Shown here: positions 21,138 to 60,524 of the stretch, piece after piece
Layout: every line of letters starts with the position of its first letter
Numbering within the stretch: the first letter of the stretch is position 1
NCBI GenBank assembly: GCA_016209275.1
Contig: JACQWM010000004.1
Coordinates: 42,243-106,242, forward strand
DNA: 64,000 nucleotides
From: Candidatus Omnitrophota bacterium
GTDB taxonomy: Bacteria > Omnitrophota > Gorgyraeia > Aquiviventales > Aquiviventaceae
Direction of reading: 5' to 3'
The notes under the pieces: model-generated
Databases searched by the model: none
What the model was told of the DNA's origin: nothing
The model's input: only the letters and a program-made list of their open reading frames with translations
Made by a program: the position numbers and the translations under genes

Positions 21138-22096
21138 GCATCGCGAACAGAAGACGTATTGGATCGAACGGAAACGAGATCCGTATGGCAGCGCTGCCCT
21201 CTGTGAGCGGCGCAGGAGGGTGGGAATCTGATGGTCTTTGCGAAGTGGAATCCTTCTATGATCTGATGTCCGAGGGCGCTGATTTCTCCTACTATCAGGA
21301 CCTCGGGCCAGGCAAATACGAAGAGCATTATTACAATCCGGATGGGGTCATCCTGTTTCCCGCGGCGCGGCAGCTGTATTGGTTTGGCGTGTCGCATCTC
21401 TCGGTTGGCACGCTTCGCCCTGGAGTTCGGGGCTATGTGCCGTGGAATCTCTGGAGAAAGAAATTCGTGTTTGCGTACCAGGGCAATCGCGTGAGCATCT
21501 TGCCGTACTCGTTCTGGCACGTGCCGGCGGGGGCGGCCGATCCCATGCGTGGGCAGTCCGCGGTGAAAGTCGCATACGCCGTCGGCCAGCGATTCCAACG
21601 GCTGTGCGATGTGCGCCCCGAAGAAGGAATGCCAGCGCAGGCGCTGGAGGCGATCGCCTCAGCGTGGAAGACGCATCGACGGCTCAAGATCGGGGTGACG
21701 ATCGGCCACAGCGTGGCGATGTTTGACGTCCGAACCGCATTTTTTGAGCGCGGGATTTTTTCGTTTTCTTCGAAGATCATCGTGATTCCTGATGCGGATG
21801 CCACGGCATTTTCCTGGGATCGCGCGTCGCTCGGCCACGTGTGCGTGTCAACGGACGGCACCTGCTCGATGGTGCAGGAAAAGCGCCCGCGGGCGGCCTG
21901 GAAGCATCAGCTCGCGGCGCTCTGTCCCGGGGTGATCGGCGCCCATCAGCTCCTTGAGCATTCTCCGCGGCCCGTTCAAGAATGGTGCCGCGCGATGCTG
22001 CGCGGTCCATCGCAAATGCTGCTGCGGTGGCTCGCGCCCTACGAGGTCAAGCAGCTCCGGTGCCCGTTTACGGTGTTTGTGAGCGAAAATACATGA
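21134..22096 (+). CDS. Hypothetical protein
   Basis: 320-aa ORF in operon context (ATGA coupling on both sides). No recognisable motif. Confidence 0.35.
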   Translation: MSIANRRRIGSNGNEIRMAALPSVSGAGGWESDGLCEVESFYDLMSEGADFSYYQDLGPGKYEEHYYNPDGVILFPAARQLYWFGVSHLSVGTLRPGVRGYVPWNLWRKKFVFAYQGNRVSILPYSFWHVPAGAADPMRGQSAVKVAYAVGQRFQRLCDVRPEEGMPAQALEAIASAWKTHRRLKIGVTIGHSVAMFDVRTAFFERGIFSFSSKIIVIPDADATAFSWDRASLGHVCVSTDGTCSMVQEKRPRAAWKHQLAALCPGVIGAHQLLEHSPRPVQEWCRAMLRGPSQMLLRWLAPYEVKQLRCPFTVFVSENT

Positions 22097-23655
22097 GCGT
22101 GCGGATCATCCCGCGTCTTGACATCAAAGGCCCCAACCTGGTGAAGGGCATTCACCTGGAGGGGCTGCGGGTGTTGGGACGGCCTGAACCGTTCGCGCGT
22201 TGCTACGCTGAGCACGGCGCGGATGAATTGTTGTTCATGGATGCGGTGGCCAGCTTGTATCAGCGTAACAGCCTGCTCGATTTGATTTCGCGGACCTCGC
22301 GGGAAATCTTCATCCCGCTGGCCGTCGGCGGCGGGCTGCGTTCGATTGACGATATCCGGATGGTCTTGCGCGCAGGCGCTGATAAAGTGTCGCTGAACAC
22401 GGCGGCCATCCAGAGGCCTGAGCTGATCCGTGAAGCCGCCCAGCGCTTCGGCAGCTCAACCATCGTCGTATCGATCGAGGCGATCAAGAGACCTGATGGG
22501 TCCTATGAGGCGTACACCGACAATGGACGGGAGCGCAGCGGGGTGGATGCGATGGCGTGGGCGCGCCGTGCGGCCGAGCTCGGAGCCGGGGAGCTGCTGG
22601 TGACCTCGATCGACCGCGAAGGCACGGGCAAAGGATTCGATGTGGAGTTGACGCGCGCCATCGCAGAATCGGCGCCGATTCCGGTGATTGCGTGCGGAGG
22701 AGCTGGCCAACTCGCCCATGTGGAGGAGGTTGTCGCGGCCGGGCGCGCGGATGCGGTCTGCCTGGCGTCGATGCTGCATTATGCCGATGGCGCTCCCCGA
22801 ACCGCGGAACATGTGGCGGCCCAGGAAGGCAACACCGAGTATCTGAAGAGCCGCCGAGGATTTTCCAAGGTGCGCGGAGCCACACTCGGGGAGATCAAAT
22901 CATTTCTTGCATCGAAACACGTCGAGTGCCGACCAGGGGACGGTGCTCTTTTTCGATGCTCGAAAAAGAGCACCGTCCCCGCACCGACCGTCGCGATCAT
23001 CGACTATGAGATGGGCAATCTCTTCAGCGTCAAACACGCCTGCGAGCATGCCGGCATGCAGGCGATCATCACCTCCTCGCGCGAGGCGATCCAGTCGGCC
23101 GATGCGATCATCCTGCCGGGTGTTGGAGCCTTCGGCGATGCGATGGCGGCCTTAAGACGGCTGGATCTGGTCAGCCTGCTGAAGGAATGCGCAGCGTCAG
23201 GCAAACCGTTGATGGGAATCTGTCTTGGCATGCAACTGCTGATGACGGAAAGCGAGGAGTTCGGGCGCCACCAAGGGCTGGGCATCATTGAGGGCGATGT
23301 GGTGCGACTCAGTCCAGGGGCTTATGACGGGCGGGCCATGAAAGTGCCCCAGGTGGGATGGAATCGGATTACGCCAACGGCCCCGGAAGCATGGCGCAAC
23401 AGCCTCTTGGCGGACACGCCGCCCGGGGCGTGGACGTATTTCGTCCATTCGTTTTATGCCCGTCCAGCCGATCCTGAGGTGATGGTGTCCACGACGCGCT
23501 ACGGTGATGCGACGTTTTGCTCAAGTCTTGCGCGGCGCAACGTGTTTGCCTGCCAATTCCATCCTGAGCGCAGCGGGCCGGACGGGCTGCGCATCTACCG
23601 CCAGTTCGCCGCGATGGCGCAACGCACGATGAAGGAGGTGGCTCCACATGCCTGA
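22093..23655 (+). CDS. Fused imidazole-glycerol-phosphate-synthase-like cyclase (HisF/WbuZ-like) and glutamine amidotransferase (HisH/WbuY-like)
   Basis: N-terminal half: IIPRLDIKGPNLVKG...AVGGG (HisF TIM barrel). C-terminal half: VAIIDYEMGNLFSV...CLGMQLL...FHPE (class I GATase triad). Confidence 0.8.
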   Translation: MSVRIIPRLDIKGPNLVKGIHLEGLRVLGRPEPFARCYAEHGADELLFMDAVASLYQRNSLLDLISRTSREIFIPLAVGGGLRSIDDIRMVLRAGADKVSLNTAAIQRPELIREAAQRFGSSTIVVSIEAIKRPDGSYEAYTDNGRERSGVDAMAWARRAAELGAGELLVTSIDREGTGKGFDVELTRAIAESAPIPVIACGGAGQLAHVEEVVAAGRADAVCLASMLHYADGAPRTAEHVAAQEGNTEYLKSRRGFSKVRGATLGEIKSFLASKHVECRPGDGALFRCSKKSTVPAPTVAIIDYEMGNLFSVKHACEHAGMQAIITSSREAIQSADAIILPGVGAFGDAMAALRRLDLVSLLKECAASGKPLMGICLGMQLLMTESEEFGRHQGLGIIEGDVVRLSPGAYDGRAMKVPQVGWNRITPTAPEAWRNSLLADTPPGAWTYFVHSFYARPADPEVMVSTTRYGDATFCSSLARRNVFACQFHPERSGPDGLRIYRQFAAMAQRTMKEVAPHA

Positions 23656-26959: not shown

Positions 26960-28133
26960 CCGCCAGGCATCCCAGGCATCGGTGCCGTTGAGCGCGCCGC
27001 TCTTCCAGGGGCGGGAATGGGAGTATCTCAAGACCTGCCTGGACAGCGGGTGGGTCTCCTCGGCCGGCCCGTTTGTGGAGCGGTTTGAGCGCGAGGTGGC
27101 GGCGTATGTAGGAAGCCCTGAGGCGGTGGCCGTCGTCAACGGGACCGCGGGGTTGCATGTGGCTCTGCGCATGGTCGGCGTTGAGCCGGAGGATGAAGTG
27201 CTGGTTTCCGATGTGACGTTTATTGCGCCGGCGAATGCGATCCGGTATTGCCAGGCCCACCCGGTGTTCATTGATGCCGAGGCCGACACGTGGCAGATGG
27301 ATGTGGAGAAGGCGGAGCGGTTTTTGCGCACGGCATGCCAGCGCCGTCGGAAGGCGTGCTACAACCAGCGTACCGGCCGGCGCGTGCGCGCTATCGTGCC
27401 GGTGCACATCCTGGGACTAGCCTGCGAGATGGATCGGCTGATGGCGCTCGCACGCGAGTATCACCTGCAGGTCGTCGAAGATGCGGCCGAAGCGATGGGC
27501 GTGCGGTATCGCGGAACCCATGTCGGCACGTTTGGCGATGCCGGAGTGTTAAGTTTCAACGGCAACAAAATCATCACTGCCGGAGGCGGCGGCATGGTCC
27601 TCACACGCAGTCGGCGCCATGCGGCCGCTGCTCGGTATCTGACCACGCAGGCCAAAGATGATGCGCTGGAGTATGTGCATCACCACATCGGATACAATTA
27701 CCGGCTGCCGAATATCCAGGCGGCGCTTGGGCTGGCGCAACTGGAGCAGCTGGATGGGTTCATCGCGAAAAAGCGCGCCATCGCCGCGGTGTATGCCGAG
27801 GCGCTGGGGACGATCCATGGCCTGACCTTGATGCCGGCACCGCCGCACACGGAGCCGACCTATTGGCTCTACACCGTGCTGCTCGCACCCGGGACCACGA
27901 TTGCGCGGCGCCAGGCGGTCATCCGAGCGCTGCGCGCCGCCGGGATCGAGGCCCGGCCGTTGTGGCATCCGCTGCACGCCTTGCGGCCCTACCGGCGGTG
28001 CCAGCGGGTGGCGATCGAATACGCGCCTCGGTTATACGCGCGGGCGGTGAGCCTGCCATCCGGGGTGGGCTTGGGCGGCGAGACGCTCGCTGAGTGCGTG
28101 GCCACCGTCAGAGACACCTTGTTAGCCTCATGA
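26928..28133 (+). CDS. DegT-family PLP-dependent sugar aminotransferase (second copy)
   Basis: Lys-region SFNGNKIITAGGGGM and the typical DegT N-terminus. Start uncertain (overlaps upstream by ~30 nt). Confidence 0.7.
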   Translation: MDTAQASTPSNRQASQASVPLSAPLFQGREWEYLKTCLDSGWVSSAGPFVERFEREVAAYVGSPEAVAVVNGTAGLHVALRMVGVEPEDEVLVSDVTFIAPANAIRYCQAHPVFIDAEADTWQMDVEKAERFLRTACQRRRKACYNQRTGRRVRAIVPVHILGLACEMDRLMALAREYHLQVVEDAAEAMGVRYRGTHVGTFGDAGVLSFNGNKIITAGGGGMVLTRSRRHAAAARYLTTQAKDDALEYVHHHIGYNYRLPNIQAALGLAQLEQLDGFIAKKRAIAAVYAEALGTIHGLTLMPAPPHTEPTYWLYTVLLAPGTTIARRQAVIRALRAAGIEARPLWHPLHALRPYRRCQRVAIEYAPRLYARAVSLPSGVGLGGETLAECVATVRDTLLAS

Positions 28134-30211
28134 CATATTTCGTTGAACATTTGACGTTTCGAACATGGGGTGTTGCCATGCTGCCTCGGCTGCTCATGGC
28201 GCGGCTGCGAGGACAGCGCAGGCCGGTGCGCTGCTACGTGATTGAAGGATCGCGGCTCGCACTGCAGGCGGCTCGCGTCACTGGGCGCCTGATCGGTATC
28301 ACGCCGGAGCGGCTTCAATTCCGCCTCATGGAGATTCGCGATGACGCCGGGCTGTCGATCCGCGTGCGGCTGGCCTATCGAGATTTGGCCGAGGTGCAAG
28401 CCGATGCGATGCGCGAGCCGGATTTCATTGCGTGCCAACAGCGCGCTCAAGGGACGGATCGCTTGCTGCCCTACCTGGCCAAGGGGTTGGCGGCCATTGA
28501 TCGGGCCGAGCGGGGAACCCTCTGGCGAAGGATGCTCACCACTCAGATCTGCGCGCGGCATATTTCCAGCGATGGGCAATCTCACGAGACACCGGTCGTG
28601 GTGATGGAGCGGCAGCCGTGGCATGGCGCGATTGAGCGCTATGCCAATCGGCACGGGCTTCGCGTCATTCCGGTTACCGCCGGCTGGGATCTCAATCGGC
28701 GGCTGCGCCGCCTGGCGCGCCGGCTCATCGATCGCATTCCTCGACCGCGGCCAACACAGGCGGTGACTGCCGGCCGAGTCGCCCCAACAGCTCGGCCGCG
28801 GATCGGGCTAACCTTCTATGGCCAGTTGAACCTGAAGCATCCGGGGCGCTACTCGGATCTGTTTTTCCTGCAGCAGTCCGCGATCCGCGGCAGCGACACG
28901 GTCCTGTTCTTTGAGTTTCCGCAGGATCCGCTTGATATGAAGAAGGCGGCTGAGTTGGCCGAGGAGGGCATTGAGGCGGTGGTGCTCAATCCGCGCGCGG
29001 CCACACTCCCCAAGGCGCGCGTGTGGAGTCCAAGACGGCGTGTGAGCGTGAAACAGCCTCGGGGGCGCAGCTGCGAGTCAGCATGGCTGGCGGAGCAAGC
29101 CGAGTCCTATCACGCGCTGCGGGCGTCGTGGCGCGAACTGTGCGCAGCACACCGCGTGAAGATCTACCTGACCTGGTACAAATATGACGGGGTCCATGCG
29201 GCGATCGCGGATGCGCTGCGGGATCTTGGCGGCATCCTCGCGGTCTATCAGCGGGCGTATGAAGGTCTTGCCTCGGCAGAGACGACGGTGAATGCTGATA
29301 TCATGTTCGGTTTCTCCACGATGGGTGCGGAGGTGGAGCAGCGCTCCGGCTCGACGATCGCCTACCATGTCACGACCGGCTACGTCGGCGATCATCGCGT
29401 TTCCCTGTGGCGCGGAGAGGCGATGAAGATCCGGCAGTCGCTGCAACAGCGCGGGGCGCGGCAGATCCTCGCCTTCGCCGATGAATCGACGAAAGATGAC
29501 GCGCGGTGGGCTCCTGGGCATCCGCAGGCCCAGCGCGACTATGCCTTTCTGCTTGAGCGCGTGCTGAATGAGCCGTGGCTTGGATTGGTGGTCAAGCCGA
29601 AGCGGCCGGTGAAGCTGCGGCCGCGGCTTGGGGCCATCGCCCAGCTCTTAGCGCGCGCCGAGGCCACGGGTCGCTGCATCGTGCTCGAAGGAGGGATTCT
29701 TCACGGCTCGGTTCCGCCGGCCGCCGCGGCACTGGCCGCCGATGTGATGATCCACGGCCACCTCTATGCCGCCACCGCCGGGGTGGAGTCTGCCTTAGCC
29801 GGCGTGCCCACGCTGTTGCTTGATCACGAGGGGTGGGCGGCAAGCCCCTTGTATCGATTAGGCGTGGGGCAGGTGGTGTTTCATGACTGGGAGTCCTTGT
29901 GGAAGCGGTGCCGTGAGCACTGGCATCAGCCGGGTGGTGTGCCGGGATTTGGCGACTGGTCTTCGATGCTTGATGAGCTGGATCCGTTTCGAGACGGCCG
30001 GGCGGCCGAGCGGCTGAGCACGTATCTTCAGTGGCTGCTCGAAGGATTTGCCGCCGGAGCCAGCCGCGAGACGGTCATGGCTGATGCCGCGCAGCGCTAT
30101 GCCTTGCAATGGGGCCACGAGATGGTGACCTCTGTTAACGCGGCCGGCTCAATTCGATATCAGATATCAAACCGCGGTTTGATATCTGATATCGCCTTGC
30201 AGGCGAGATGA
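28130..30211 (+). CDS. Large hypothetical protein (~693 aa), possible GT-B/capsule-synthesis-like transferase
   Basis: No canonical motifs. The C-terminal Rossmann-like segment resembles GT-B or CDP-glycerol transferase folds. ATGA coupling with the upstream DegT. Confidence 0.4.
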   Translation: MTYFVEHLTFRTWGVAMLPRLLMARLRGQRRPVRCYVIEGSRLALQAARVTGRLIGITPERLQFRLMEIRDDAGLSIRVRLAYRDLAEVQADAMREPDFIACQQRAQGTDRLLPYLAKGLAAIDRAERGTLWRRMLTTQICARHISSDGQSHETPVVVMERQPWHGAIERYANRHGLRVIPVTAGWDLNRRLRRLARRLIDRIPRPRPTQAVTAGRVAPTARPRIGLTFYGQLNLKHPGRYSDLFFLQQSAIRGSDTVLFFEFPQDPLDMKKAAELAEEGIEAVVLNPRAATLPKARVWSPRRRVSVKQPRGRSCESAWLAEQAESYHALRASWRELCAAHRVKIYLTWYKYDGVHAAIADALRDLGGILAVYQRAYEGLASAETTVNADIMFGFSTMGAEVEQRSGSTIAYHVTTGYVGDHRVSLWRGEAMKIRQSLQQRGARQILAFADESTKDDARWAPGHPQAQRDYAFLLERVLNEPWLGLVVKPKRPVKLRPRLGAIAQLLARAEATGRCIVLEGGILHGSVPPAAAALAADVMIHGHLYAATAGVESALAGVPTLLLDHEGWAASPLYRLGVGQVVFHDWESLWKRCREHWHQPGGVPGFGDWSSMLDELDPFRDGRAAERLSTYLQWLLEGFAAGASRETVMADAAQRYALQWGHEMVTSVNAAGSIRYQISNRGLISDIALQAR
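30155..30194. repeat. Perfect 40-bp palindrome CGATATCAGATATCAAACCG|CGGTTTGATATCTGATATCG
   Basis: Read directly from the sequence. Lies in the last codons of the 28130-30211 gene, 14 nt before the next ATG. Confidence 0.9.
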
Positions 30212-32322
30212 CGCAGCAGCGGCGCGGGGCGGTTTTTTTGGATCGCGATGGCACCATCGCGCGATACCGCGAGTACTGCCGATCGCCTGAGGAGTTTGAT
30301 CTGCTGCCTGGGGTGGGCGAGGCGATCCGCAAACTGAATGACGCGAACGTGCCGGTGGTGGTGATGACGAATCAGTCCGCGGTCGGCCGAGGATGGCTCA
30401 CGATGGAGACGTTGTCCTCGATCCATGAAAAGATGCAGCAGGAGCTGGCTCGCGTCGGCGCGCGGATCGATGCGATTTATGTCTGCCCGCATCATCCGGA
30501 TGACGGCTGTGCGTGCCGAAAACCTGGAACGCACATGCTGACCAAGGCGGCGGATGAGCTGGGGCTCTCACTGACTGAGTCGTATGTGATCGGCGATCGA
30601 TGGCAGGATGTCCAAACCGGCCGCGGGGCCGGCAGCCGGGCGATCCTTGTCAAGAGCGGTCATCCGGCTGAGCCGGCCAATGGGACCACGGCAGATTATG
30701 AAGCCCCAACACTTGGCGACGCGGTTGATTGGCTCTTGCAGCAGCGCCAGCAGCAGACCGCCTCGGCTCAGACCGACTGGTCCACGCGGTACCGCGCGTT
30801 AGCCGAGCGACTCTATGAAGTTCGTCGAGCGTGCCCGCGGTTTGCGGTCTTGGGCACGTCCACGCTGCACCCGCGGCATTCGCTGCCTGCGGATCAGGTG
30901 GAGCTGGCGGATCGGCCACAAGAAGACGCGCCTTGGCCGATTCCCTCATGGCCGCGGATCATCACCCACGCCCTGAAATTGGCCGTCTACGCGGCACAAG
31001 AAACAGCCAATCTCGTGTGGATTTCCTGGCATGGCCGAGGCATGTTGCGCCGCCTGTCGCAGCAGCCAGCCACCGTGGTGATGAAGACCTGGTGTTTTGG
31101 TCCGCAGTCGTTTGATGCCGCGCGTGACTTTTATTACGGCACCGTACCGCATCAGCTGCAGGCGAAAGGGATCTCCACGGTCGTGTTGTGCGGCGACACC
31201 CGAGAGCGATGCGACCTCGCCTTCCTCACAGCATTCTTGCGGGAGGGCGCGGTTCGCTACGTGCCCGAATGGCTGTTGCTGCCCTGGTGGGCGCCGATGA
31301 TCACCCTGTGCCGGCAGCTTTGGGGAGCGTTGTCGTTGCGCCGCGTGGCACAACGAGCCGCCTCTTCGTCGTTGGCCGCCGTGGCTGCGACGGCCTGCGT
31401 GAATGCTTTGACACCAATTACCATGCGTAATCTGCTGCAATATCACATCGCGCGGGCGGCCGTGAAACGATGGAACGCCGGCGCGTTTGTCACGTTGTAC
31501 GAAGGACAACCCTGGGAACAACCGGCGTGGCATGGAGCCAGAGCCGCGAATCCCTCATGCCGCCTCGTCGGCTATCAGCACACCGTCATCATGCCGCATT
31601 CCTTGGCTGTCCGCCGCCCCCAGTCGATTGGGAAAGAAATTGCAGCACCCGACATCGTCCTGTGCCTTGGAGAAACCACTCGGCGAATGATCGCCCCAGG
31701 ACATCAGCCGCACGGCAATCGCCTCATCACGTTTGGCACATGCCGGCGGCCAGCTTCCCGCGGTTCGGCTCGCGGCCCGCGGCCGGATCTTCGGACGGTC
31801 CTCGTCTTGCCTGAGGGGTTCCAGAGCGAGGCGCGCCTGCTCTTTCGTTTCGCCATGAACGTCGCAGCGATCATGCCAGACCACAGGTTCATTTTCCGCT
31901 CGCACCCAGTGCTGCCGTTTTCTCAAGTCCGGCCGCATCTTCAGCGCGATCCAGCACAGATGACCAATATCGAGATTTCAACGCGCAAGACGATCGAAGA
32001 AGATTTCAGCCGGGCTTCCGTCGTGCTGTACCGAGGATCCTCGACGGTCTTATATGCGGTGCTGCACGGTGTGAAGCCGATCTACGTGCATGACGCGGCA
32101 GCCCCTGATGTGGATCCATTGTTTGAGCTCAGCGCGTGGCGTGAGGGGGTCGAGGCGGCCACCCAGGCGCATGATCGGCTCGCGGCGTATGCCACCGGTG
32201 CCGTGCCGTCAGCGGCCGCCGAATGGCTATCGGCCGCCGCCTATGTCGATCAGTACGTGATACCGGTGGATGAGGCGGCGATTGATCGGTTCATTGACGC
32301 CTTCCGCGGAGCAAGGACGTGA
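30208..32322 (+). CDS. GmhB-like HAD-IIIA phosphatase domain fused to a ~520-aa uncharacterised C-terminal domain
   Basis: N-terminus VFLDRDGTI...VMTNQSAVGRG...AIYVCPHHPDDGCACRKPG (second GmhB signature in the window). The remainder is unrecognised but ends in a GT-B-like Rossmann segment. Confidence 0.55.
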   Translation: MTQQRRGAVFLDRDGTIARYREYCRSPEEFDLLPGVGEAIRKLNDANVPVVVMTNQSAVGRGWLTMETLSSIHEKMQQELARVGARIDAIYVCPHHPDDGCACRKPGTHMLTKAADELGLSLTESYVIGDRWQDVQTGRGAGSRAILVKSGHPAEPANGTTADYEAPTLGDAVDWLLQQRQQQTASAQTDWSTRYRALAERLYEVRRACPRFAVLGTSTLHPRHSLPADQVELADRPQEDAPWPIPSWPRIITHALKLAVYAAQETANLVWISWHGRGMLRRLSQQPATVVMKTWCFGPQSFDAARDFYYGTVPHQLQAKGISTVVLCGDTRERCDLAFLTAFLREGAVRYVPEWLLLPWWAPMITLCRQLWGALSLRRVAQRAASSSLAAVAATACVNALTPITMRNLLQYHIARAAVKRWNAGAFVTLYEGQPWEQPAWHGARAANPSCRLVGYQHTVIMPHSLAVRRPQSIGKEIAAPDIVLCLGETTRRMIAPGHQPHGNRLITFGTCRRPASRGSARGPRPDLRTVLVLPEGFQSEARLLFRFAMNVAAIMPDHRFIFRSHPVLPFSQVRPHLQRDPAQMTNIEISTRKTIEEDFSRASVVLYRGSSTVLYAVLHGVKPIYVHDAAAPDVDPLFELSAWREGVEAATQAHDRLAAYATGAVPSAAAEWLSAAAYVDQYVIPVDEAAIDRFIDAFRGART

Positions 32323-33356
32323 TGCGGTGCATCATTTTCGGCTATGGCTACATGGGGAAAATCCGCTATGAGGTCTTGCGCCGCCATCCGAAGGTGCGCT
32401 CGATCGTCGTCGTCGATCCAGCGCTGAACGCTGCATCGGTGTCAGGGCTGGGCGTGGTGGCCCTGCCTGAGGGTGCGCCGATTCCGTGGGAGACATGCGA
32501 TGCGGCGTTTATCTGCACGCCCAATCATGCGACGGCGGATCTGTGTATCGAGAGTCTCCGACGGTGCGGGCGAGTGTTCTGCGAAAAGCCTCCCGGCCGC
32601 CACTGGGATGATTTTTCACGGATCGCCGAGGCTGCGGCCCGCATTCCGGATCACACACTGGTCTTTGGCTTCAACCACCGGCTGCATCCTTCGGTGCAAG
32701 CGGCCAAGGCGCTCGTGGGGCCAGGGGGGTTGGGCGAGATTCTCTATGTCAAAGGCACCTACGGCAAGTCCGGAGGGCTTCGCTTCCGCGAGAACTGGCG
32801 CAGCAATCTTGAGCTTGCCGGCGGCGGCATTCTGCTGGATCAAGGCATCCACATGCTGGATGTGTTTCATCTGTTCCTCGATGGTCCGCTGACCGTGGTC
32901 GATGCGGTCCTGGCCAACGCGTTTTGGGGTGTGGGCGGCGAGGATAATGCGTTCGTGCTGATGCGCTCAGCCCAGGGGATTCCGGCATTCCTGCATTCCT
33001 CGGCGACGCTGTGGAAGCATACGTTCCGCATCGAAATCGGGTGCCGCGATGGCTATCTCGTGGCCAGCGGGTTGCTGTCGCAGACCGGAAGCTACGGCCG
33101 GGAGCAGTTGGTGATCGGCAAACGGCAGTTCGAGGATGAGGCGATGGCGCTGGGCAATCCGCGCGAGGAAATTATTTATTTCGACCGCGATGAGTCATGG
33201 GAAAAAGAAGTGAATGAATTTCTTGATGCGGCCATTCAGCGTCGCCCGGCGACCCACGGCACGCTGGAGGATGCGCGGCGCGCCATGCAAGTCGTGCGCG
33301 ACGCGTATGCGCTTGCCGAAGGGCAACGCGCGAAAGGACACGTCTCATGCGACTGA
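32322..33356 (+). CDS. Gfo/Idh/MocA-family oxidoreductase
   Basis: CIIFGYGYMGK...FCEKPP canonical motifs. Confidence 0.7.
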   Translation: MRCIIFGYGYMGKIRYEVLRRHPKVRSIVVVDPALNAASVSGLGVVALPEGAPIPWETCDAAFICTPNHATADLCIESLRRCGRVFCEKPPGRHWDDFSRIAEAAARIPDHTLVFGFNHRLHPSVQAAKALVGPGGLGEILYVKGTYGKSGGLRFRENWRSNLELAGGGILLDQGIHMLDVFHLFLDGPLTVVDAVLANAFWGVGGEDNAFVLMRSAQGIPAFLHSSATLWKHTFRIEIGCRDGYLVASGLLSQTGSYGREQLVIGKRQFEDEAMALGNPREEIIYFDRDESWEKEVNEFLDAAIQRRPATHGTLEDARRAMQVVRDAYALAEGQRAKGHVSCD

Positions 33357-34330
33357 TTCAAACGAGCACCACCGTGCCGCTCTCATCCGTCAAGCCGCTT
33401 GAGGAGGTTTTCCAGTATCGAGCGTTTTGCCTTGAGGCCACGCGCCGAGCGTTGGCCGCAGGGCCGACCACGGTGCGAGCGCGCTCGCCAGTCAGCAACG
33501 CACGGCTTGAGCCGTGGGAAGCGATCGAGGGGCTGCCGTACTCGCGGTGTCCTGACTCCGGCAGCCTGTTGCTGTCACGACTCCCTGCGGATTCCGCGCG
33601 ATGGGCCGAGCTGTTGCGCGAGGTGAGCCGGCACCGCGTGTCATCCCGCGGTTTTTATCCCGGGCTCGCGCAATCGCGCGCCGATCATGTCCACGCGCCC
33701 AAGGTCGAGTGGATGCTCGAGACGATGCGGCTGCACGGCCTGGACCGGCCACGGGTCCTGGAAGTCACGACACCGCCGAGCGCGATCAGCGCGCTGTTAC
33801 AGGCCAGCGGCCGATTTTCAGACCTGCTCGTTGAGGATGAAATGGCGCTCGCCCATGAGCGCACGCCTCGTCCCTCGGCGGATCAGGTCGAGGCGGCGAT
33901 GCTCTGCGAGTCGCTCGATCGGGTGGATGATCCCGCGGCCTTGCTGCGCGCGGTGGCTGGCCGCTTGGTGGATGGCGGATTGCTGTTTGTGACAGCGCTG
34001 GTCGCCTCCGGATTTGACCTGGCGGTCTTGGGGTGCCGCAGCGCCTACCTCTATCCTCCGGATCGCGCCAACTGCTTTAGCCTGCGAGGGCTCTCCTTGC
34101 TGCTGGAGCGCTCGGGGTTTGCGCTGCAAGAGGTGAGCACGCCCGGCATGCTTGATGTGGAGATCATCCAGGCCCATCTGCAGCACGAGGCGTCCTTACC
34201 GCTATCGGTCTTCGAGCGGCAGCTGGTCACGGCGGATCACGAGACGCAGCGCGCGTTTCAAACATTTTTGCAGCAGCAGGCGCTGAGCTCCTTTGCCCGT
34301 CTGGTTGGCCGGAAACATTCGGAGGGTTGA
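33347..34330 (+). CDS. Hypothetical protein, degenerate methyltransferase-like fold
   Basis: RVLEVTT...LCESLDRVDDPAALLRAV...GGLLFV resembles a class I MTase without an intact glycine motif. Confidence 0.3.
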   Translation: MRLIQTSTTVPLSSVKPLEEVFQYRAFCLEATRRALAAGPTTVRARSPVSNARLEPWEAIEGLPYSRCPDSGSLLLSRLPADSARWAELLREVSRHRVSSRGFYPGLAQSRADHVHAPKVEWMLETMRLHGLDRPRVLEVTTPPSAISALLQASGRFSDLLVEDEMALAHERTPRPSADQVEAAMLCESLDRVDDPAALLRAVAGRLVDGGLLFVTALVASGFDLAVLGCRSAYLYPPDRANCFSLRGLSLLLERSGFALQEVSTPGMLDVEIIQAHLQHEASLPLSVFERQLVTADHETQRAFQTFLQQQALSSFARLVGRKHSEG

Positions 34331-34959
34331 TGATCCCAGAGACGTTTTTAACTCGATATTTTGAAGAGGCCTCACACGTTGCGCGCGCGCTCGACGTGGA
34401 AGTGGTCGACCGCATGGTGCAGCGCCTGGTCAAGCTTCGCGATGAGGGCGGTCGGTTGTTTCTCTGCGGGGTCGGCGGGGGGGCTGGCAACTGCAGCCAT
34501 GCGGTCAATGATTTCAGGAAGCTGGCCGGCATCGAAGCGTATTCGCCGGTGGACAATGTGTCTGAATTAACCGCGCGCGCCAACGATGAGGGATGGGACA
34601 CGGTGTTTGCCGGCTGGCTGCGGGGCAGCCGCGCTGGAGCGCGCGATGTGCTCTTGGTGTTCTCCGTGGGCGGTGGCGATCGCAAGCGCAACATCAGTGC
34701 GAATCTGGTGGCGGCCATCGATGAAGCCAAAGCCCGCGGCATGGATGTGCTGGGCATTGTCGGGCGAGACGGCGGCTACACCAAGCAGCGCGGCGATATC
34801 GTGCTCGTCATTCCGACGGTGAATCCCCAGTCGATTACGCCGCACACCGAAGCGTTTCAGGCGGTGGTGTGGCATGGGATCGTGTGCGATCCTCGCCTGA
34901 TGGCCCACAGCAACACGTGGGAGCGTCTGGCCTCGGACCAGGAGGCCGTGAAGGTCTGA
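34330..34959 (+). CDS. gmhA: Phosphoheptose (sedoheptulose-7-phosphate) isomerase GmhA (SIS domain)
   Basis: LFLCGVGGGAGNCSHAVNDF...VLLVFSVGGG SIS motifs. ~210 aa. Confidence 0.75.
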   Translation: MIPETFLTRYFEEASHVARALDVEVVDRMVQRLVKLRDEGGRLFLCGVGGGAGNCSHAVNDFRKLAGIEAYSPVDNVSELTARANDEGWDTVFAGWLRGSRAGARDVLLVFSVGGGDRKRNISANLVAAIDEAKARGMDVLGIVGRDGGYTKQRGDIVLVIPTVNPQSITPHTEAFQAVVWHGIVCDPRLMAHSNTWERLASDQEAVKV

Positions 34960-35687
34960 TGAAGCTTGCGGCTCTCATCCCGCGCCGGCGCGGACTCTCC
35001 AAGGCCCAATTACAGCAGCGGGCGGCGCTGAATCAGCTGCAGCGGTTCGAGGCAGTCCTCAACCGCCATCGCCGGTCCCTCAAGGACTGCACGACCATTC
35101 TGGAGTTCGGCTGCGGCCATGGGCGGCTGCTGAAGCCGGTGGCGGATTTCGTTCCGGGTGCTTCCATTGCCGGGTGCGATGTGCTGAACAAGGCGGTCGC
35201 CGTCTGCCGACGGAAGTTTCCTCAGGGACGCTTTGTGACCAATGGCGCGCTGCCGCCGCTGGCGTTCGCGGATGGATCGTTTGACTTGATGTATTCCTAC
35301 AGCGTCTTCACGCATCTGCCGGAAGCGCATCATCGCGCCTGGTTGAAGGAGCTCGCCCGCGTGCTGCGCCCCGGCGGGGTGATGCTGCATACGATTCACT
35401 CGCATGAGTTTCTCCGGCGGGCATCGCGTTTCAGCCCGGAATCGCTGGTGAAGTACGCATTACCGCAGCCGGTCGATGCGTTGATCCGCTCAGGCACAGG
35501 CTATACCTATACCATGGATGATCCCACACAGCCAGCCTACGGGCTGGCGATTATCAGCCCAGCGTACGTGGCGGCGCACTGGCCAAAGGTGAGCGGGCTC
35601 ACACTGCTCGATCATGTCGAGGGGGCCATTGAAGCCTACCCAGAAGGCTGCCAGGACATTGTCCTGTTGCTGAAAGCTCCGCAATGA
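34959..35687 (+). CDS. Class I SAM-dependent methyltransferase
   Basis: ILEFGCGHGRLL motif I and DLMYSYSVFTHL. TGATG coupling. Confidence 0.65.
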   Translation: MKLAALIPRRRGLSKAQLQQRAALNQLQRFEAVLNRHRRSLKDCTTILEFGCGHGRLLKPVADFVPGASIAGCDVLNKAVAVCRRKFPQGRFVTNGALPPLAFADGSFDLMYSYSVFTHLPEAHHRAWLKELARVLRPGGVMLHTIHSHEFLRRASRFSPESLVKYALPQPVDALIRSGTGYTYTMDDPTQPAYGLAIISPAYVAAHWPKVSGLTLLDHVEGAIEAYPEGCQDIVLLLKAPQ

Positions 35688-36076
35688 CGCGTCGACCGAA
35701 TCAAGAACGCTCCTTTGGCTATTCCGTGGGGATCGTGTGCGCGCTGCTTGCCGGGTTTCAGGTGTGGCGCGCGCGGCCACTCGCCGCGAGTGTCTTTAGC
35801 GTCCTCGCGATCGTGTTGATCGCCGCCGCATGGCTGCGGCCGATGCTCTTGCGTTGGCCGAGCGCATGGTGGTGGACGATGGCTCACGCGTTGGGATGGT
35901 TCAACGCGCGCGTGCTGCTGTCGGTGATGTTTTATATCATCCTGACACCGCTGGGGATTCTCCTGCGCTTTGTTCGGTGGGACCCGCTGTGTGTGCGTTC
36001 TCCGCGGCGGTCCAGCGGGTGGGTGCCGTATCCCGAAGGCCATCGGAGCCCGAAGCATTATGAACGCCTGTATTGA
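35684..36076 (+). CDS. SxtJ-like small membrane protein (carbamoyltransferase-associated)
   Basis: 130 aa with three predicted TM helices. This family typically sits next to NodU/CmcH carbamoyltransferases. Confidence 0.45.
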   Translation: MTRRPNQERSFGYSVGIVCALLAGFQVWRARPLAASVFSVLAIVLIAAAWLRPMLLRWPSAWWWTMAHALGWFNARVLLSVMFYIILTPLGILLRFVRWDPLCVRSPRRSSGWVPYPEGHRSPKHYERLY

Positions 36077-36082
36077 TCGCCC

Positions 36083-37147
36083 ATGATGACGAAGACGCGC
36101 TTTCTGAAGTTTGCGGTTGCGACGGTGATGATCTCCACGGTCCTGATCGTCGGCGCGCTCCTCGGGCTTGATCTGTGGTACCACAAACGGTTCGAAAAGG
36201 TCGCCGGAATGAACTGGCGGGGCTATCGCGGCCCGGTCGTCCATCGAAAACTCCCCGGGGAGCAGCGCGTCGCCGTCCTCGGAGGCAGCACGGCCTTTTG
36301 CTTCGGGGTCTCGGGCGCCGAGGCCTGGCCTGCGGCGCTGGAGCGGTCTGTGAATGCGCAGCGGCGAGCGCGCCACCAAGGGCCGGTGAGCATCGTCAAC
36401 TTGGGAGCATTGCATGTCGGCGCCTACTCATTTACCGACACCCTGCGCGATTACGCGTCGCTGGACTACGATGTGGCGCTCTTCTACACCGGCTACAACG
36501 ATCTGGGTGCGCCGAACATCCGAAATATTCGGCGGGAGTCGCCGCTCTTCCGGCTCACCGGCTATTACCCGATCCTGCCGCTCGTCGTCAAAGAAAAGCT
36601 GATGGCCCTTCGCTACGGAGGCAACTTGGAGGCCGCGTATCTCGCCGAGCAGGGCAAGCGCCCGACCTTCCGCCCGAATTATACGCAGGTGCAATCCTCC
36701 GAGGGTGCGCAGGCGGTGGCCGCCGTCAAGAAAGCGCTGCTCGAGTTTCCTGAAGAGGATCTGGTCGTGCACGGCGACCTGTCGCGCGCGCTGGGGGCGG
36801 TGAATGCCCAGCAGGTGCAGCTCGCCGCGGAGGGCTGCGGAGATCTGTGGGCCTTCTACTGTTGGTCGCTGGAGCGGGCGGTGAGCGTGGCACTCGATGA
36901 TGGCAAGACCGTGATGGTCGTCACGCAGCCGTATCTGTCTCCGCGCCATATCCAGCAGCAACAGGTGATGACGCGCCGGCTTCAGGAGCGATGGAAGGAT
37001 GATCCGCGCATTCAGTATGTCAACGTGGGGCAGACGGCGGATCTTCGGGATCCAGCGCTCTGTTTTGACGGCATCCACCTGACGGTGCAGGGCAACCAGC
37101 GGATCGCCGAAGCCCTAGTCGATCCGTTATTGCAGCGGCTTGATTGA
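36083..37147 (+). CDS. Membrane-anchored SGNH/GDSL-like hydrolase
   Basis: N-terminal TM helix, VAVLGGSTAFCFG (a GDS-like block I) and a later YTGYNDL block. Confidence 0.5.
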   Translation: MMTKTRFLKFAVATVMISTVLIVGALLGLDLWYHKRFEKVAGMNWRGYRGPVVHRKLPGEQRVAVLGGSTAFCFGVSGAEAWPAALERSVNAQRRARHQGPVSIVNLGALHVGAYSFTDTLRDYASLDYDVALFYTGYNDLGAPNIRNIRRESPLFRLTGYYPILPLVVKEKLMALRYGGNLEAAYLAEQGKRPTFRPNYTQVQSSEGAQAVAAVKKALLEFPEEDLVVHGDLSRALGAVNAQQVQLAAEGCGDLWAFYCWSLERAVSVALDDGKTVMVVTQPYLSPRHIQQQQVMTRRLQERWKDDPRIQYVNVGQTADLRDPALCFDGIHLTVQGNQRIAEALVDPLLQRLD

Positions 37148-37154
37148 GAGGGGC

Positions 37155-37316
37155 ATGATGAGCAAAGGACGCGTCCTTCGGGAATTTTGGCAGTTCCTCT
37201 GGCAAGAAAAAAAGTTCTGGCTGATTCCGATTGTGGTGGTGCTGGTCCTCTTCGGCGCGCTGCTGGTCTTTTCGCAAAGCAGCGCGGTGGCCCCCTTTAT
37301 CTACACGCTGTTTTGA
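37155..37316 (+). CDS. SxtK-like small membrane protein (53 aa; not in the supplied ORF track)
   Basis: MMSKGRVLREFWQFLWQEKKFWLIPIVVVLVLFGALLVFSQSSAVAPFIYTLF. Its stop overlaps the carbamoyltransferase ATG (TGATG). Confidence 0.45.
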   Translation: MMSKGRVLREFWQFLWQEKKFWLIPIVVVLVLFGALLVFSQSSAVAPFIYTLF

Positions 37317-39148
37317 TGCCAACACGGATCCTGGGGATTTCAGCGTATTACCATGACTCGGCGGCGTGCCTGCTGAGCGATGGGGATATTGTGGCCGCGG
37401 CCCAGGAGGAGCGCTTCACGCGCAAGAAGCATGACGCGCGCTTTCCTTCGCGCGCCGTGGAGTTCTGTTTGACGCAGGCTGGGATCACGATGAACGATCT
37501 TGACCTCGTCGGCTTCTATGAGAAGCCGCTGGTGAAGTTCGATCGGCTCTTAGAAACGTATCTGGCGTACGCCCCACGCGGGTGGCGATCGTTTCTGACG
37601 TCGATGCCGGTGTGGTTGAGCGAGAAGCTGTGGCTTCCCGACCTCATCGGCAGGGAGCTGGGGTATTCGGGGAAGATCCTCTTCGGAGACCACCATGAGT
37701 CCCATGCGGCCTCGGCGTTTTACCCCTCGCCGTTTGATGAGGCGGCGATTCTGACCATGGATGCGGTCGGGGAATGGGCCACGTCATCGTACGGCTACGG
37801 CAAGGGGAAGGACATCACCCTGCTTGGCGAAATGCGCTTTCCGCATTCGTTGGGGATGCTGTACTCGGCGTTCACCTATTTCACCGGCTTTAAGGTGAAC
37901 TCCGGGGAGTATAAGGTGATGGGGCTGGCCCCCTACGGCGAGCCGAGGTACGCCTCGCGGATCCGGGATCATCTGGTGCAGATTCATGACGACGGCAGTC
38001 TGACCCTCAACATGGACTACTTTAATTATTGCACCGGCTTGACCATGACCAACCGGAACTTCGAGCGGCTCTTCGGCGGGCCGCCGCGCGAGCCGGAAAG
38101 CCCGATCACGCAGCGTGAGATGGATCTGGCCAGGTCGATTCAAGAAGTGACCGAAGAGATCATGCTGAAGATGGCCCGGCACGTGCACCGGGAAACCGGA
38201 TTGTCATCGCTGTGTTTGGCTGGCGGTGTTGCGCTCAACTGTGTCGGCAACGGCCGGATCTTGCGCGAAGGGCCGTTTGAGCAGATCTGGGTGCAGCCTG
38301 CGGCCGGCGATGCCGGCGGGGCTCTCGGCGTGGCTTTGGCGTTGTGGCATCGATCCCTGGGACAGCCACGGCGCGCTCGCATCGGTCAAGCGTTCGCCGA
38401 TGATATGCGCGGCAGTCTCTTAGGGCCGGCATTTTCTGATGAAGTGATCAGCGCCTGGTTGAGCCAGGAAGATGTGGCCGCGACCCGGGTGGATCGCGAT
38501 GAGCTGCCCCGCCGCGTCGCAGGGTTGATCGCCGAGGGCAAGGTGGTCGGCTTGTTTCAATCCCGGATGGAATTCGGGCCCAGAGCGCTTGGAGCCCGCT
38601 CGATCCTCGGGGATCCGCGCTCGCCGCAGATGCAATCGCTGATGAACCTGAAGATCAAGTTCCGGGAGTCATTCAGGCCCTTCGCCCCGACGGTGCTGCG
38701 GGAGCGGGTGAGCGACTGGTTTGATCTGGATGGCGAGAGCCCCTACATGCTCCTGGTGGCGGATGTCTCCGAGAAACGCCGCCGGCCGATGGCGGATGCG
38801 GAACAATCGCTGTGGGGAATGAAGAAGCTCAACGTGGTCCGCTCTGAGATTCCGGCCGTGACCCACGTCGATTATTCGGCGCGCATCCAGACGATCCGCC
38901 GGGAGGCGAACCCGCTGTTCTATGATATTATCCAGGCGTTCGATTGGCTCACCGGCTGTCCCGTCGTCATCAACACCTCGTTTAACGTCCGCGGCGAGCC
39001 GATGGTGTGCACGCCGCAGGACGCCTATCGCTGTTTCATGCGCACACAGATGGATGCGCTGGTCCTGGAGAGCTTTCTGATCGAAAAATCTCAGCAGAAG
39101 CCGGTGGCGGAGGATGCCTCATGGCAGAAGGAGTTTCAACTCGATTAG
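37316..39148 (+). CDS. NodU/CmcH-family O-carbamoyltransferase
   Basis: ILGISAYYHDSAACLL...EERFTRKKHD N-terminal carbamoyltransferase signature. ~610 aa. Confidence 0.8.
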   Translation: MPTRILGISAYYHDSAACLLSDGDIVAAAQEERFTRKKHDARFPSRAVEFCLTQAGITMNDLDLVGFYEKPLVKFDRLLETYLAYAPRGWRSFLTSMPVWLSEKLWLPDLIGRELGYSGKILFGDHHESHAASAFYPSPFDEAAILTMDAVGEWATSSYGYGKGKDITLLGEMRFPHSLGMLYSAFTYFTGFKVNSGEYKVMGLAPYGEPRYASRIRDHLVQIHDDGSLTLNMDYFNYCTGLTMTNRNFERLFGGPPREPESPITQREMDLARSIQEVTEEIMLKMARHVHRETGLSSLCLAGGVALNCVGNGRILREGPFEQIWVQPAAGDAGGALGVALALWHRSLGQPRRARIGQAFADDMRGSLLGPAFSDEVISAWLSQEDVAATRVDRDELPRRVAGLIAEGKVVGLFQSRMEFGPRALGARSILGDPRSPQMQSLMNLKIKFRESFRPFAPTVLRERVSDWFDLDGESPYMLLVADVSEKRRRPMADAEQSLWGMKKLNVVRSEIPAVTHVDYSARIQTIRREANPLFYDIIQAFDWLTGCPVVINTSFNVRGEPMVCTPQDAYRCFMRTQMDALVLESFLIEKSQQKPVAEDASWQKEFQLD

Positions 39149-59715: not shown

Positions 59716-60524
59716 TGGCGCCGCGGACCACCATCATTGCGGAGATCGGCGAGAACCATGTCGGCGACTGGGATCGCGCGCGGCAGATGATCTGTGCTGC
59801 CGCCGCCACCGGCGCGGACATCGTCAAATTTCAGTCCTATCGCAGCGCGGATGTGGCGGATGACGATCCGGAAAAGACGTGGTTTGGGCGCGTGGAAGTC
59901 CCGGATGCCGTGCACCGGCAGCTCGCCCAGGCGGCTCGAGCCGCCGGGGTGGGATTCTTGAGCGCGCCGTTCACCGTTGAGCGGGCGCAGTTTCTGTGCG
60001 AGCAGATGGGATTGCGGGCCGTCAAGATCGCCTCCTCCGAGCTGTTGAACAGGCGGTTGTTGGACTATGTGAGCACGCAGGCGGAGACGGTGTATCTGTC
60101 GACAGGGATGGCGACGCTGGATGAGGTGCGCGAGGCGGTCACCCGCCTGCGCGCCGTCCCGCGCGTGATCATCATGCATTGCGTGACCCAGTACCCGCTG
60201 AAGGATGAGGACGCCAACTTGCGGGCCATCGAAGCGCTGCGGCAGGCGTTCCCTGAGCATTCGATCGGATACTCTGATCACACCATCGGGATCACGGCGC
60301 CGCTGATCGCCGTGGCGTTGGGCGCTGCCGTGATCGAGAAGCATTTCACCATGGATAAATCGCTGCCAGGCACGGATCATGCGCTCTCTGTCACCCCGGA
60401 GGAGCTCAGGGCCATGGTGGACGGCATTCGCCGGGTGGAGCGGCTCTTGGGGGTGGCCGAGAAGCAGCCGGTGGCGGCGGAGCTGGCCATTCGCGACGCG
60501 GTCCGTGCGAGGTTTCCGAAATGA
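59715..60524 (+). CDS. NeuB-family ulosonate synthase lacking the SAF domain (SpsE/PseI-like)
   Basis: TTIIAEIGENHVGD...DIVKFQSY signature. Only ~269 aa, with no C-terminal SAF domain. Confidence 0.65.
   Translation: MAPRTTIIAEIGENHVGDWDRARQMICAAAATGADIVKFQSYRSADVADDDPEKTWFGRVEVPDAVHRQLAQAARAAGVGFLSAPFTVERAQFLCEQMGLRAVKIASSELLNRRLLDYVSTQAETVYLSTGMATLDEVREAVTRLRAVPRVIIMHCVTQYPLKDEDANLRAIEALRQAFPEHSIGYSDHTIGITAPLIAVALGAAVIEKHFTMDKSLPGTDHALSVTPEELRAMVDGIRRVERLLGVAEKQPVAAELAIRDAVRARFPK

Follow-up and report, generated by a model that had tools for sequence, protein, structure and literature searches.

A palindrome at the junction of two polysaccharide genes

We examined a 40-bp palindrome in a 64,000-nucleotide stretch of DNA from a Candidatus Omnitrophota bacterium (contig JACQWM010000004.1 of assembly GCA_016209275.1), called the window below. 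The window is a long, nearly all plus-strand sugar and polysaccharide cluster with genes for nucleotidyltransferase, 4,6-dehydratase, DegT aminotransferase, methyltransferases, glycosyltransferases, carbamoyltransferase and asparagine synthase. The palindrome lies where two large genes of this cluster meet, here named A and B, and it provides codons 1 to 14 of the final 19 codons of gene A. The TGA of gene A overlaps the ATG of gene B by 4 nt (ATGA). Coordinates of these features and of the related elements described below are collected in Table 1.

Reading of the sequence confirmed what an earlier note on this DNA had described, a perfect inverted repeat of 20 plus 20 nt with zero spacer (CGATATCAGATATCAAACCG/CGGTTTGATATCTGATATCG), in the last 19 codons of gene A. 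The gap between its last base and the ATG of gene B is 13 nt, not 14 as first given. The palindrome is AT-rich, with 40% GC, but the background is 61 to 65% GC (62.7% overall) rather than 66%. It does contain four GATATC cores, out of 17 in the window; as 11 sites were expected and 5 of 100 shuffles reached 17, enrichment of GATATC in the window is not clear. The 40-mer is unique in the 64 kb even when 3 mismatches are tolerated, in the whole 40-mer or in one 20-nt arm. No match to it was obtained in 100 dinucleotide-preserving shuffles, and the view of the note that a chance origin is unlikely was upheld. Among the perfect short-range inverted repeats of the window, only a hairpin at 22936-22980, described at the end, exceeds it in length. 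No Rfam covariance model gave a match overlapping the palindrome at E values up to 10, and the features of an intrinsic terminator are absent, the stem having 40% GC and being followed by CCTTGCAGG, with no T run.

An independent assembly also supports the palindrome: over window positions 30165-37423, identity to Logan contig L001 (SRR12113390) is 100%. Position 1 of L001 corresponds to window position 30165, 10 nt into the palindrome, so that the contig starts at palindrome position 11; this is presumably where a k=31 de Bruijn graph would break on a 40-bp palindrome. Palindromes of this kind break k=31 assemblies, and fragmented assemblies would systematically split operons at such places.

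The C terminus of gene A reads ...SIRYQISNRGLISDIALQAR over its last 19 codons (...VTSVNAAGSIRYQISNRGLISDIALQAR for a longer stretch of the tail), followed by the stop. Its conserved portion ends with ...QRYALQWGHEMVTSVN, after which comes the tail AAGSI-RYQISNRGLISDI-ALQAR, read through the single open frame of the element. The other two frames end in TGA, and the peptides encoded by the element also include ISDIKPRFDI and DIRYQTAV, each followed by a stop. We found 78 homologues of gene A, all at most 58% identical to it. Their conservation extends to ...ADAAQRYA.WG..V..VN, beyond which they have unrelated tails, approximately 1 to 35 residues long. As this tail is not conserved across the homologues, the palindrome is located in a part of gene A that tolerates change. 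An identical copy of gene A, from a Candidatus Omnitrophica metagenome-assembled genome (MAG), bears the annotation of a hypothetical protein, and the named matches are from Omnitrophica, with one from Rokubacteria.

Three orthologous loci have these genes in the same order (DegT, A, HAD), and there, too, A and the HAD gene overlap by 4 nt. The A-HAD junctions of the three loci for which DNA was available (L007, L008 and L009) have neither a palindrome nor a hairpin. Because these loci keep gene order and overlap without it, the palindrome is not an insertion boundary, and the suggestion of the earlier note that it might be a relic recombination site marking the insertion of a GmhB-fusion block is refuted. 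In the orthologous loci examined, gene A lies between a DegT aminotransferase or a sulfotransferase gene and that of a small HAD phosphatase. The HAD protein is free-standing in homologous loci (186 to 193 aa), whereas in the window it is fused to approximately 500 extra residues.

Table 1. Positions of the palindrome, its neighbouring genes, its relatives and other junction elements
Feature	Sequence	Position	Strand	Remarks
Gene A	Window	28130..30211 (alternative start 28094)	+	~693-705 aa, no Pfam domain
Hairpin repeat element	Window	30155..30194		18-bp stem and 4-nt loop CGCG; covariance-model score 65.7 bits, both strands
Constant outer left repeat CGATATCAGATA, palindromic core GATATC	Window	30155..30166		Invariant in all intact members
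Inner stem, left half TCAAAC	Window	30167..30172		Positions 13, 14, 15 and 18 variable; AA at 16-17 constant
Loop CGCG	Window	30173..30176		Elsewhere AGCC, AGGC, GGG, or 11/13 nt
Inner stem, right half GTTTGA	Window	30177..30182		Pairs with left half
Constant outer right repeat TATCTGATATCG	Window	30183..30194		Invariant in intact members
Possible weak ribosome-binding site of gene B, AGGCGAG	Window	30201..30207	+	3' of the hairpin, not sequestered; putative assignment
Gene B	Window	30208..32322	+	N-terminal HAD/GmhB-like phosphatase fused to ~500 aa, function unassigned
Family member ...TGAAAT-AGCC-ATTTCA...	L014	2349-2388		9 nt before RarA ATG, divergent intergenic region
Family member ...TCTAAG-13 nt-CTTAGA...	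L014	5057-5105		ATP-sulfurylase stop inside; next ATG 7 nt downstream
Family member ...CGTAAG-AGGC-CTTACG...	L013	279-318		Between ThrC-like gene and thiS
Family member ...CCTAAG-GGG-CTTAGG...	L019	1342-1380		Partial right-arm duplicate directly after
Family members	L018	3413 and 6121		Orthologues of L014 2349 and 5057; 3413 decaying
GTCCATAGTCC-type element, ~110 nt	L011	793-908		
ATTACAGTGAT-type element	L014	9893-10000		
GGGGTCAGACCCC...GGGGTCTGACCCC-type element	L014 and L012	2067-2121 (L014) and 1011-1065 (L012)		
GTCAGACACGTTT... hairpin	L014	11372-11401		12-bp stem; 9 nt before Na/Ca-exchanger start

The same 40-mer lies between thiS and thiF in a second lineage

The search for other copies of the motif that the earlier note had proposed gave none in the rest of the window but recovered the 40-mer and variants of it in a second Omnitrophota lineage. 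A scan of metagenomes with one arm of the palindrome retrieved the whole of it on JGI contig Ga0209515_10004387 (L005), where it separates a ThiS/MoaD-like gene from thiF/moeB; cysteine-synthase-like, ThrC-like, TusA, Prok-JAB and NIL-domain genes belong to the same operon. The ThiS-like protein reads ...IIPAIAGG and then SSISDIKPRFDI, with a stop codon supplied by the palindrome, and the ATG of thiF is 8 nt past it. The identical 40-mer is present in L005, L012 and L014 to L017, and the thiS allele P0079 was found in at least five independent ENA/JGI assemblies.

The tetranucleotide correlation between the window and this second genome is 0.90, compared with 0.98 to 0.99 within a genome, and the two are therefore distinct. 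The best named relatives of the RarA protein of the second genome (75 to 83% identical) are from Candidatus Omnitrophica/Omnitrophota. Since they carry the phylum label of the window, both hosts belong to the same phylum.

The genome-contig scan with the exact arm, in a collection without source MAG, also gave arm-only matches (L002, equal to L006, L003 and L004). They were rejected as chance 20-mers inside ordinary coding sequences of AT-richer, unrelated genomes (a Bacteroidetes GT2 gene, an M48-like protein and Frischella). Viral contigs, scanned with the arm and the family pattern, and plasmids gave no match.

The effect of the element on the ThiS/MoaD-like protein is visible in several carriers. 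The gene at L014 10001-10312, like those in L005, L012 and L015 to L017, has no stop after the C-terminal GG, and its product bears 12 extra residues (SSISDIKPRFDI). In L013 (346-672), 17 hairpin-encoded residues follow the GG. Annotated open reading frames (ORFs) are thus extended or fused by these elements, as in the tail of gene A and the 12 to 17 residues added to ThiS after GG. The thiS operon also codes for a Prok-JAB/JAMM protease (L014 6758-7192), which could trim the extended ThiS.

Family members share a compensated hairpin

To look for further members, we scanned the fetched loci first for the outer 12-mers, then by covariance model. The family occupies five independent junctions, one in the window and four in the second lineage, and comprises six intact sequence variants. 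All follow a common plan: the outer stem of 12 bp is constant (CGATATCAGATA/TATCTGATATCG), the inner stem has 6 bp, and the loop measures 3 to 13 nt. The elements are 39 to 49 nt long and have perfect terminal inverted repeats of 12 to 13 nt. Positions 13, 14, 15 and 18 of the inner stem vary, and the AA at positions 16-17 is fixed. The gap between the constant half-sites is 15, 16, 23 or 25 nt, depending on the copy. The perfect palindrome of the window is a member of this family with a self-complementary 4-nt loop, CGCG.

In an alignment of five variants, 98.9% of the stem cells pair. Four pairs vary, each time on both sides (10 cells), with zero one-sided changes and zero G.U pairs. The sixth variant, from L019 (CCTAAG/CTTAGG), is also fully Watson-Crick, and the 18-bp stem is present in all six. 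Computed RNA folds of five variants range from -22.9 to -30.3 kcal/mol, with z scores of -9 to -10, and DNA folds of three variants from -15.1 to -16.5 kcal/mol. At stem pair 13, the window and every L014-lineage copy have T-A, and the three Hainich-lineage copies all have C-G; to judge from these sequences, this split is a genome-specific signature of the kind typically expected for repeat populations.

All copies are located at gene boundaries. For six of the seven, the upstream ORF stops within the hairpin or no more than 17 nt beyond the 3' end of the hairpin; the copy at L014 2349 is the sole fully intergenic one. Three copies were counted in 20 kb of L014, three in approximately 4 kb of Hainich-strain contigs and one in the 64-kb window. 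The partial right-arm duplicate of L019 (1381-1411, GGTATCTGATATCG) may be left over from a second copy or from a slip during replication.

Sister strains carry filled, empty and variant alleles

Sister strains were taken from the 90%-identity cluster of the second-lineage ThiF. In L010 and L011 the site between thiS and thiF is empty, with a 91-aa ThiS whose gene ends GCC GGC GGG TAA, followed by 8 nt and the ATG. L012 has the perfect 40-mer, in flanks that differ at synonymous sites. L013 has a variant at the same site, CGATATCAGATACCGAAC-cgtttgctgca-GTTCGGTATCTGATATCG, with an 18-bp stem, an 11-nt loop and two stem positions changed on both arms. The 3' spacer up to the ATG of thiF is different in each allele.

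The flanks of L013 and L014 differ by 2.4%, whereas their hairpins are set apart by 5 substitutions plus an indel of 7 nt, and the 3' spacer has been replaced. Change in the hairpin exceeds that in the flanks in this pair, indicating that the element turns over faster than its surroundings. Between L012 and L014, none of the 40 positions of the 40-mer has changed in flanks diverged by 3.1%, which is not significant as only about 1.2 changes were expected. Gain, loss and replacement of elements at operon junctions occur at the level of strains. The copy at L018 3413-3452 has two uncompensated left-arm substitutions relative to L014 2349-2388 (CAGATA to CTGAAA), within 460 nt of otherwise identical surroundings, which suggests locally elevated change or decay of this hairpin.

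The palindrome is likely a copy of a mobile or multiplying hairpin

We consider it likely that the palindrome is a copy of a small, non-autonomous hairpin family, mobile or at least multiplying, that resembles repetitive extragenic palindromic (REP) sequences or REPINs and resides at gene junctions of Omnitrophota from groundwater. Its members are probably selfish DNA. What the sequences show is the presence of the family at unrelated loci, an identical copy in a second genome, filled and empty alleles of sister strains, compensatory variation, a turnover that outpaces the flanks, and orthologous loci that keep their gene order with no element in place. The earlier note had treated the palindrome as a site specific to its locus, an idea that would fall with a dispersed, REP-like repeat; the copies at unrelated junctions and in another Omnitrophota lineage are largely of that description. 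This removes a tempting reading, in which two unknown genes of polysaccharide metabolism would have a tailor-made site for regulation or recombination between them. The family is new; the kind of element to which it belongs is known. The motif string was not found in the literature searched, and to our knowledge no REP family has been described in Omnitrophota. For this uncultivated phylum, no earlier REP/REPIN-like repeat family seems to be on record. Uncommon features are that the members are very small, form perfect stems and regularly overlap the ends of ORFs, and that two genomes share an identical copy.

In the scenario that we favour, the elements would spread as DNA within one genome and between related genomes and would settle in short spacers at gene boundaries. 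The window copy would have landed 13 nt upstream of the ATG of gene B, in the 3' tail of gene A, which is dispensable. Gene A would read the open frame of the element, gain approximately 13 to 14 residues and still end at the ancestral ATGA overlap, and the copy would be tolerated because of this read-through and of the preserved overlap. Mobilization might occur in trans through a single-stranded DNA hairpin intermediate, the obvious candidate enzyme being a HUH transposase of the REP-associated tyrosine transposase (RAYT) or IS200/IS605 type. The 40-mer may represent a "master" variant of the family. Once transcribed, the hairpin would have at most a secondary effect at the junction of genes A and B, be it on the stability of the mRNA, on the progress of ribosomes or on coupling, for instance as a ribosome pause or as a nuclease barrier or target. 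The mRNA hairpin proposed in the earlier note stands insofar as a hairpin forms, with an 18-bp stem kept by compensatory changes and a computed RNA fold of -25.7 kcal/mol (z = -9) for the window copy; a locus-specific design does not, and an effect on the A/B junction, although possible, would be a by-product.

Several observations weigh against a mobile repeat. The window has no second copy, even when searched by the covariance model with filters off. No transposase or RAYT gene was seen among the window ORFs scanned or in approximately 45 kb of related loci, and no parent insertion sequence (IS) with matching ends was seen there either. There is no consistent target-site duplication, and none is revealed by the comparison of empty and filled alleles; the dinucleotides flanking the element are TT/CC in the window and TT/CC, AG/TA, TT/TT and AA/AA elsewhere. 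E. coli REP sequences have a conserved 5' tetranucleotide, GTAG, that is used for cleavage. The elements described here have no conserved tetranucleotide and no GTAG on that side, where the flanks read ...AATT, ...CATT, ...AGTT, ...AGAG, ...GGAG and ...AGAA. Those of the window and of L014 2349 are partly alike (...ATT, hairpin, CC(T/A)T(G)CAGGC), but no decision can rest on five independent sites. The thiS-thiF alleles with and without the element also differ in stop codon and spacer; as the filled alleles have lost the stop codon of the empty allele and have an altered spacer, this was no clean cut-and-paste insertion. Lastly, several copies overlap the 3' ends of ORFs and hence are not strictly extragenic, and five of the seven lie 7 to 13 nt before a start codon, which could reflect a selected function.

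That last position is also what would be expected if the hairpin were primarily a selected intercistronic RNA element that tunes the expression of its neighbours, as a target of RNase III, a target of or barrier to exonucleases or a device for coupling, with the repeats arising from reuse of a module. The stems are very stable and are kept by compensatory changes, and unrelated hairpins occupy equivalent positions at window 22936-22980 and, 9 nt before a start codon, at L014 11372-11401. REP sequences are known to stabilize mRNA. REPs and MITEs (miniature transposable elements with inverted repeats) affect mRNA stability and processing (PMC10969869). We nevertheless regard this explanation as improbable. 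Near-identical strains differ in the presence or absence of the element, different palindromes occupy one and the same junction, and the orthologous A-HAD junctions have no hairpin at all. Selection at the RNA level would allow G.U pairs, yet there are none among the compensated pairs. The outer stem is symmetric, so that no strand preference is visible, and the window hairpin is inside a translated region, where each ribosome would melt it. The 12 to 17 residues added past the essential GG end of ThiS look like collateral damage.

The earlier note had also proposed a protein-binding site, for a regulator or methylase. Very unlikely, in our view, is a DNA site for a dimeric regulator or for a methylase or restriction enzyme that recognizes half-sites containing GATATC. 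The constant 12-nt half-sites are indeed inverted, each with a GATATC core, and the L014 2349 copy lies in a divergent promoter region. However, half-sites 15 to 25 nt apart in different copies are at odds with a dimer of fixed geometry, such a site would not explain why the variable interior is complementary, and most copies are at stop/start junctions within operons and not in promoters. The conserved GATATC sites are the outer pair only, and the window is not clearly enriched in this motif. The least probable explanation of all, to which we give next to no weight, is that the palindrome is the scar of a recombination event that inserted the GmhB-fusion block, or an artefact of assembly or library preparation. 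It does sit at the exact junction of two large genes, palindromes can be assembly artefacts, and the Logan contig breaks within it. These points are opposed by the conserved gene order and overlap of the three orthologous loci, by flanks that are contiguous, complete gene ends, and by the occurrence of the element, with natural sequence variants, in at least six assemblies from different assemblers; matches to plasmids or viral contigs are lacking. A synthetic linker or adapter, with the SacII centre and the EcoRV sites in mind, was ruled out by the contiguous gene ends, the compensated natural variants and the many unrelated assemblies.

It may also be, although we think it unlikely, that these are distinct, junction-seeking elements of Omnitrophota, of less than 50 nt, with perfect stems, one open frame and stops in two, that replace stop and spacer regions and have perhaps been co-opted as intercistronic signals for processing or decoupling. 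They would perhaps be moved by some non-RAYT enzyme, with their apical part possibly renewed through templated fold-back, which would explain why wobble pairs and mismatches are absent from the variable part of the stem.

Comparison with known mobile repeats

REPINs consist of two inverted REPs with palindromic cores, in which the sequence of the spacer is not conserved and the hairpin is always kept; they are dispersed extragenically and are probably mobilized by RAYTs through single-stranded hairpins (Bertels and Rainey, PMC3337134). The family resembles them in its constant inverted CGATATCAGATA/TATCTGATATCG units, its small palindromic cores and a spacer that varies yet forms a hairpin (PMC3337134). 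It shares with them the location at gene boundaries and within operons, the genome-specific variants and the presence or absence in given strains. Unlike REPINs, its members are 39 to 49 nt long, compared with approximately 89 nt for a Pseudomonas REPIN, and have perfect Watson-Crick rather than imperfect stems. Many copies also run into the 3' end of the ORF upstream and provide the stop codon of that ORF. REP systems have tens to hundreds of dispersed copies per genome, and the gene of their RAYT, a Y1 HUH transposase, is typically flanked by the repeats; no RAYT accompanies the elements described here in the sequences scanned.

MITEs can insert in operons without destroying them, and their transcribed hairpins can be cut by RNases (PMC10969869). 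With Correia, ERIC and Chunjie elements the family has in common the non-autonomous nature, the terminal inverted repeats and the insertion in operons. However, typical MITEs are approximately 100 to 400 bp long, within an overall range of roughly 50 to 500 bp, with target-site duplications and a recognizable parent IS, whereas the elements described here are shorter than 50 nt and neither a consistent duplication nor a parent IS was seen. Rickettsia palindromic elements insert into protein genes, where they are read in frame and add a peptide segment (PMC10969869). The tail of gene A and the extension of ThiS parallel this in-frame read-through. The Rickettsia elements nonetheless are approximately 150 bp long, encode a conserved peptide and belong to Rickettsia; the family has a single open frame and is found at gene ends only.

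Mobility of the IS200/IS605 type relies on recognition of single-stranded DNA hairpins and generates no target duplication. It would fit the all-Watson-Crick stems of the family and the absent duplications, but in such elements the two subterminal hairpins differ from each other and the target tetranucleotide is fixed, and neither trait is demonstrated here. If a cognate enzyme were found, the family would offer a compact system for the study of hairpin-directed DNA mobility. Integron attC sites have R''/R' cores (RYYYAAC ... GTTRRRY) and extrahelical bases, and they are found at the 3' end of mobile cassettes. An attC identity was rejected given the ends of the element (CGATATC.../...GATATCG), its bulge-free stems and its location in core operons (thiS-thiF, sulfate assimilation).

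Other palindromes at gene junctions

The second lineage has at least four other types of palindromic repeats at gene junctions, and strains differ in the element found at one junction (Table 1). None of its palindrome families B, C and D occurs in the window.

The window has further hairpins of its own. Positions 22936-22980 form a perfect hairpin with a 21-bp stem, GGGGACGGTGCTCTTTTTCGA, and a 3-nt loop, in frame within ORF 21982-23655. It encodes the linker GDGALFRCSKKSTVP between a HisF-like domain (aa 41-268) and a glutamine-amidotransferase, HisH-like domain (aa 339-542). This looks like another junction hairpin, one that has fused two normally separate genes; it has no further copy in the window or in the loci. 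A 14-bp stem with a 14-nt loop (ACATTATGCCCGGC...GCCGGGCATAATGT) is located at 62086-62127, inside the radical-SAM ORF 60521-62620, and a GC-rich perfect 24-bp palindrome, TGCTCGCCGGCCGGCCGGCGAGCA, at 63503-63526. Gene boundaries in the window and in the second-lineage genomes evidently host several families of hairpin repeats.

Apart from these repeats, positions 35684-39148 of the window, within the polysaccharide cluster, contain an SxtJ-like ORF together with a carbamoyltransferase gene and a mini-ORF for DUF5989 (annotated on L001), an unusual combination for a glycan locus.

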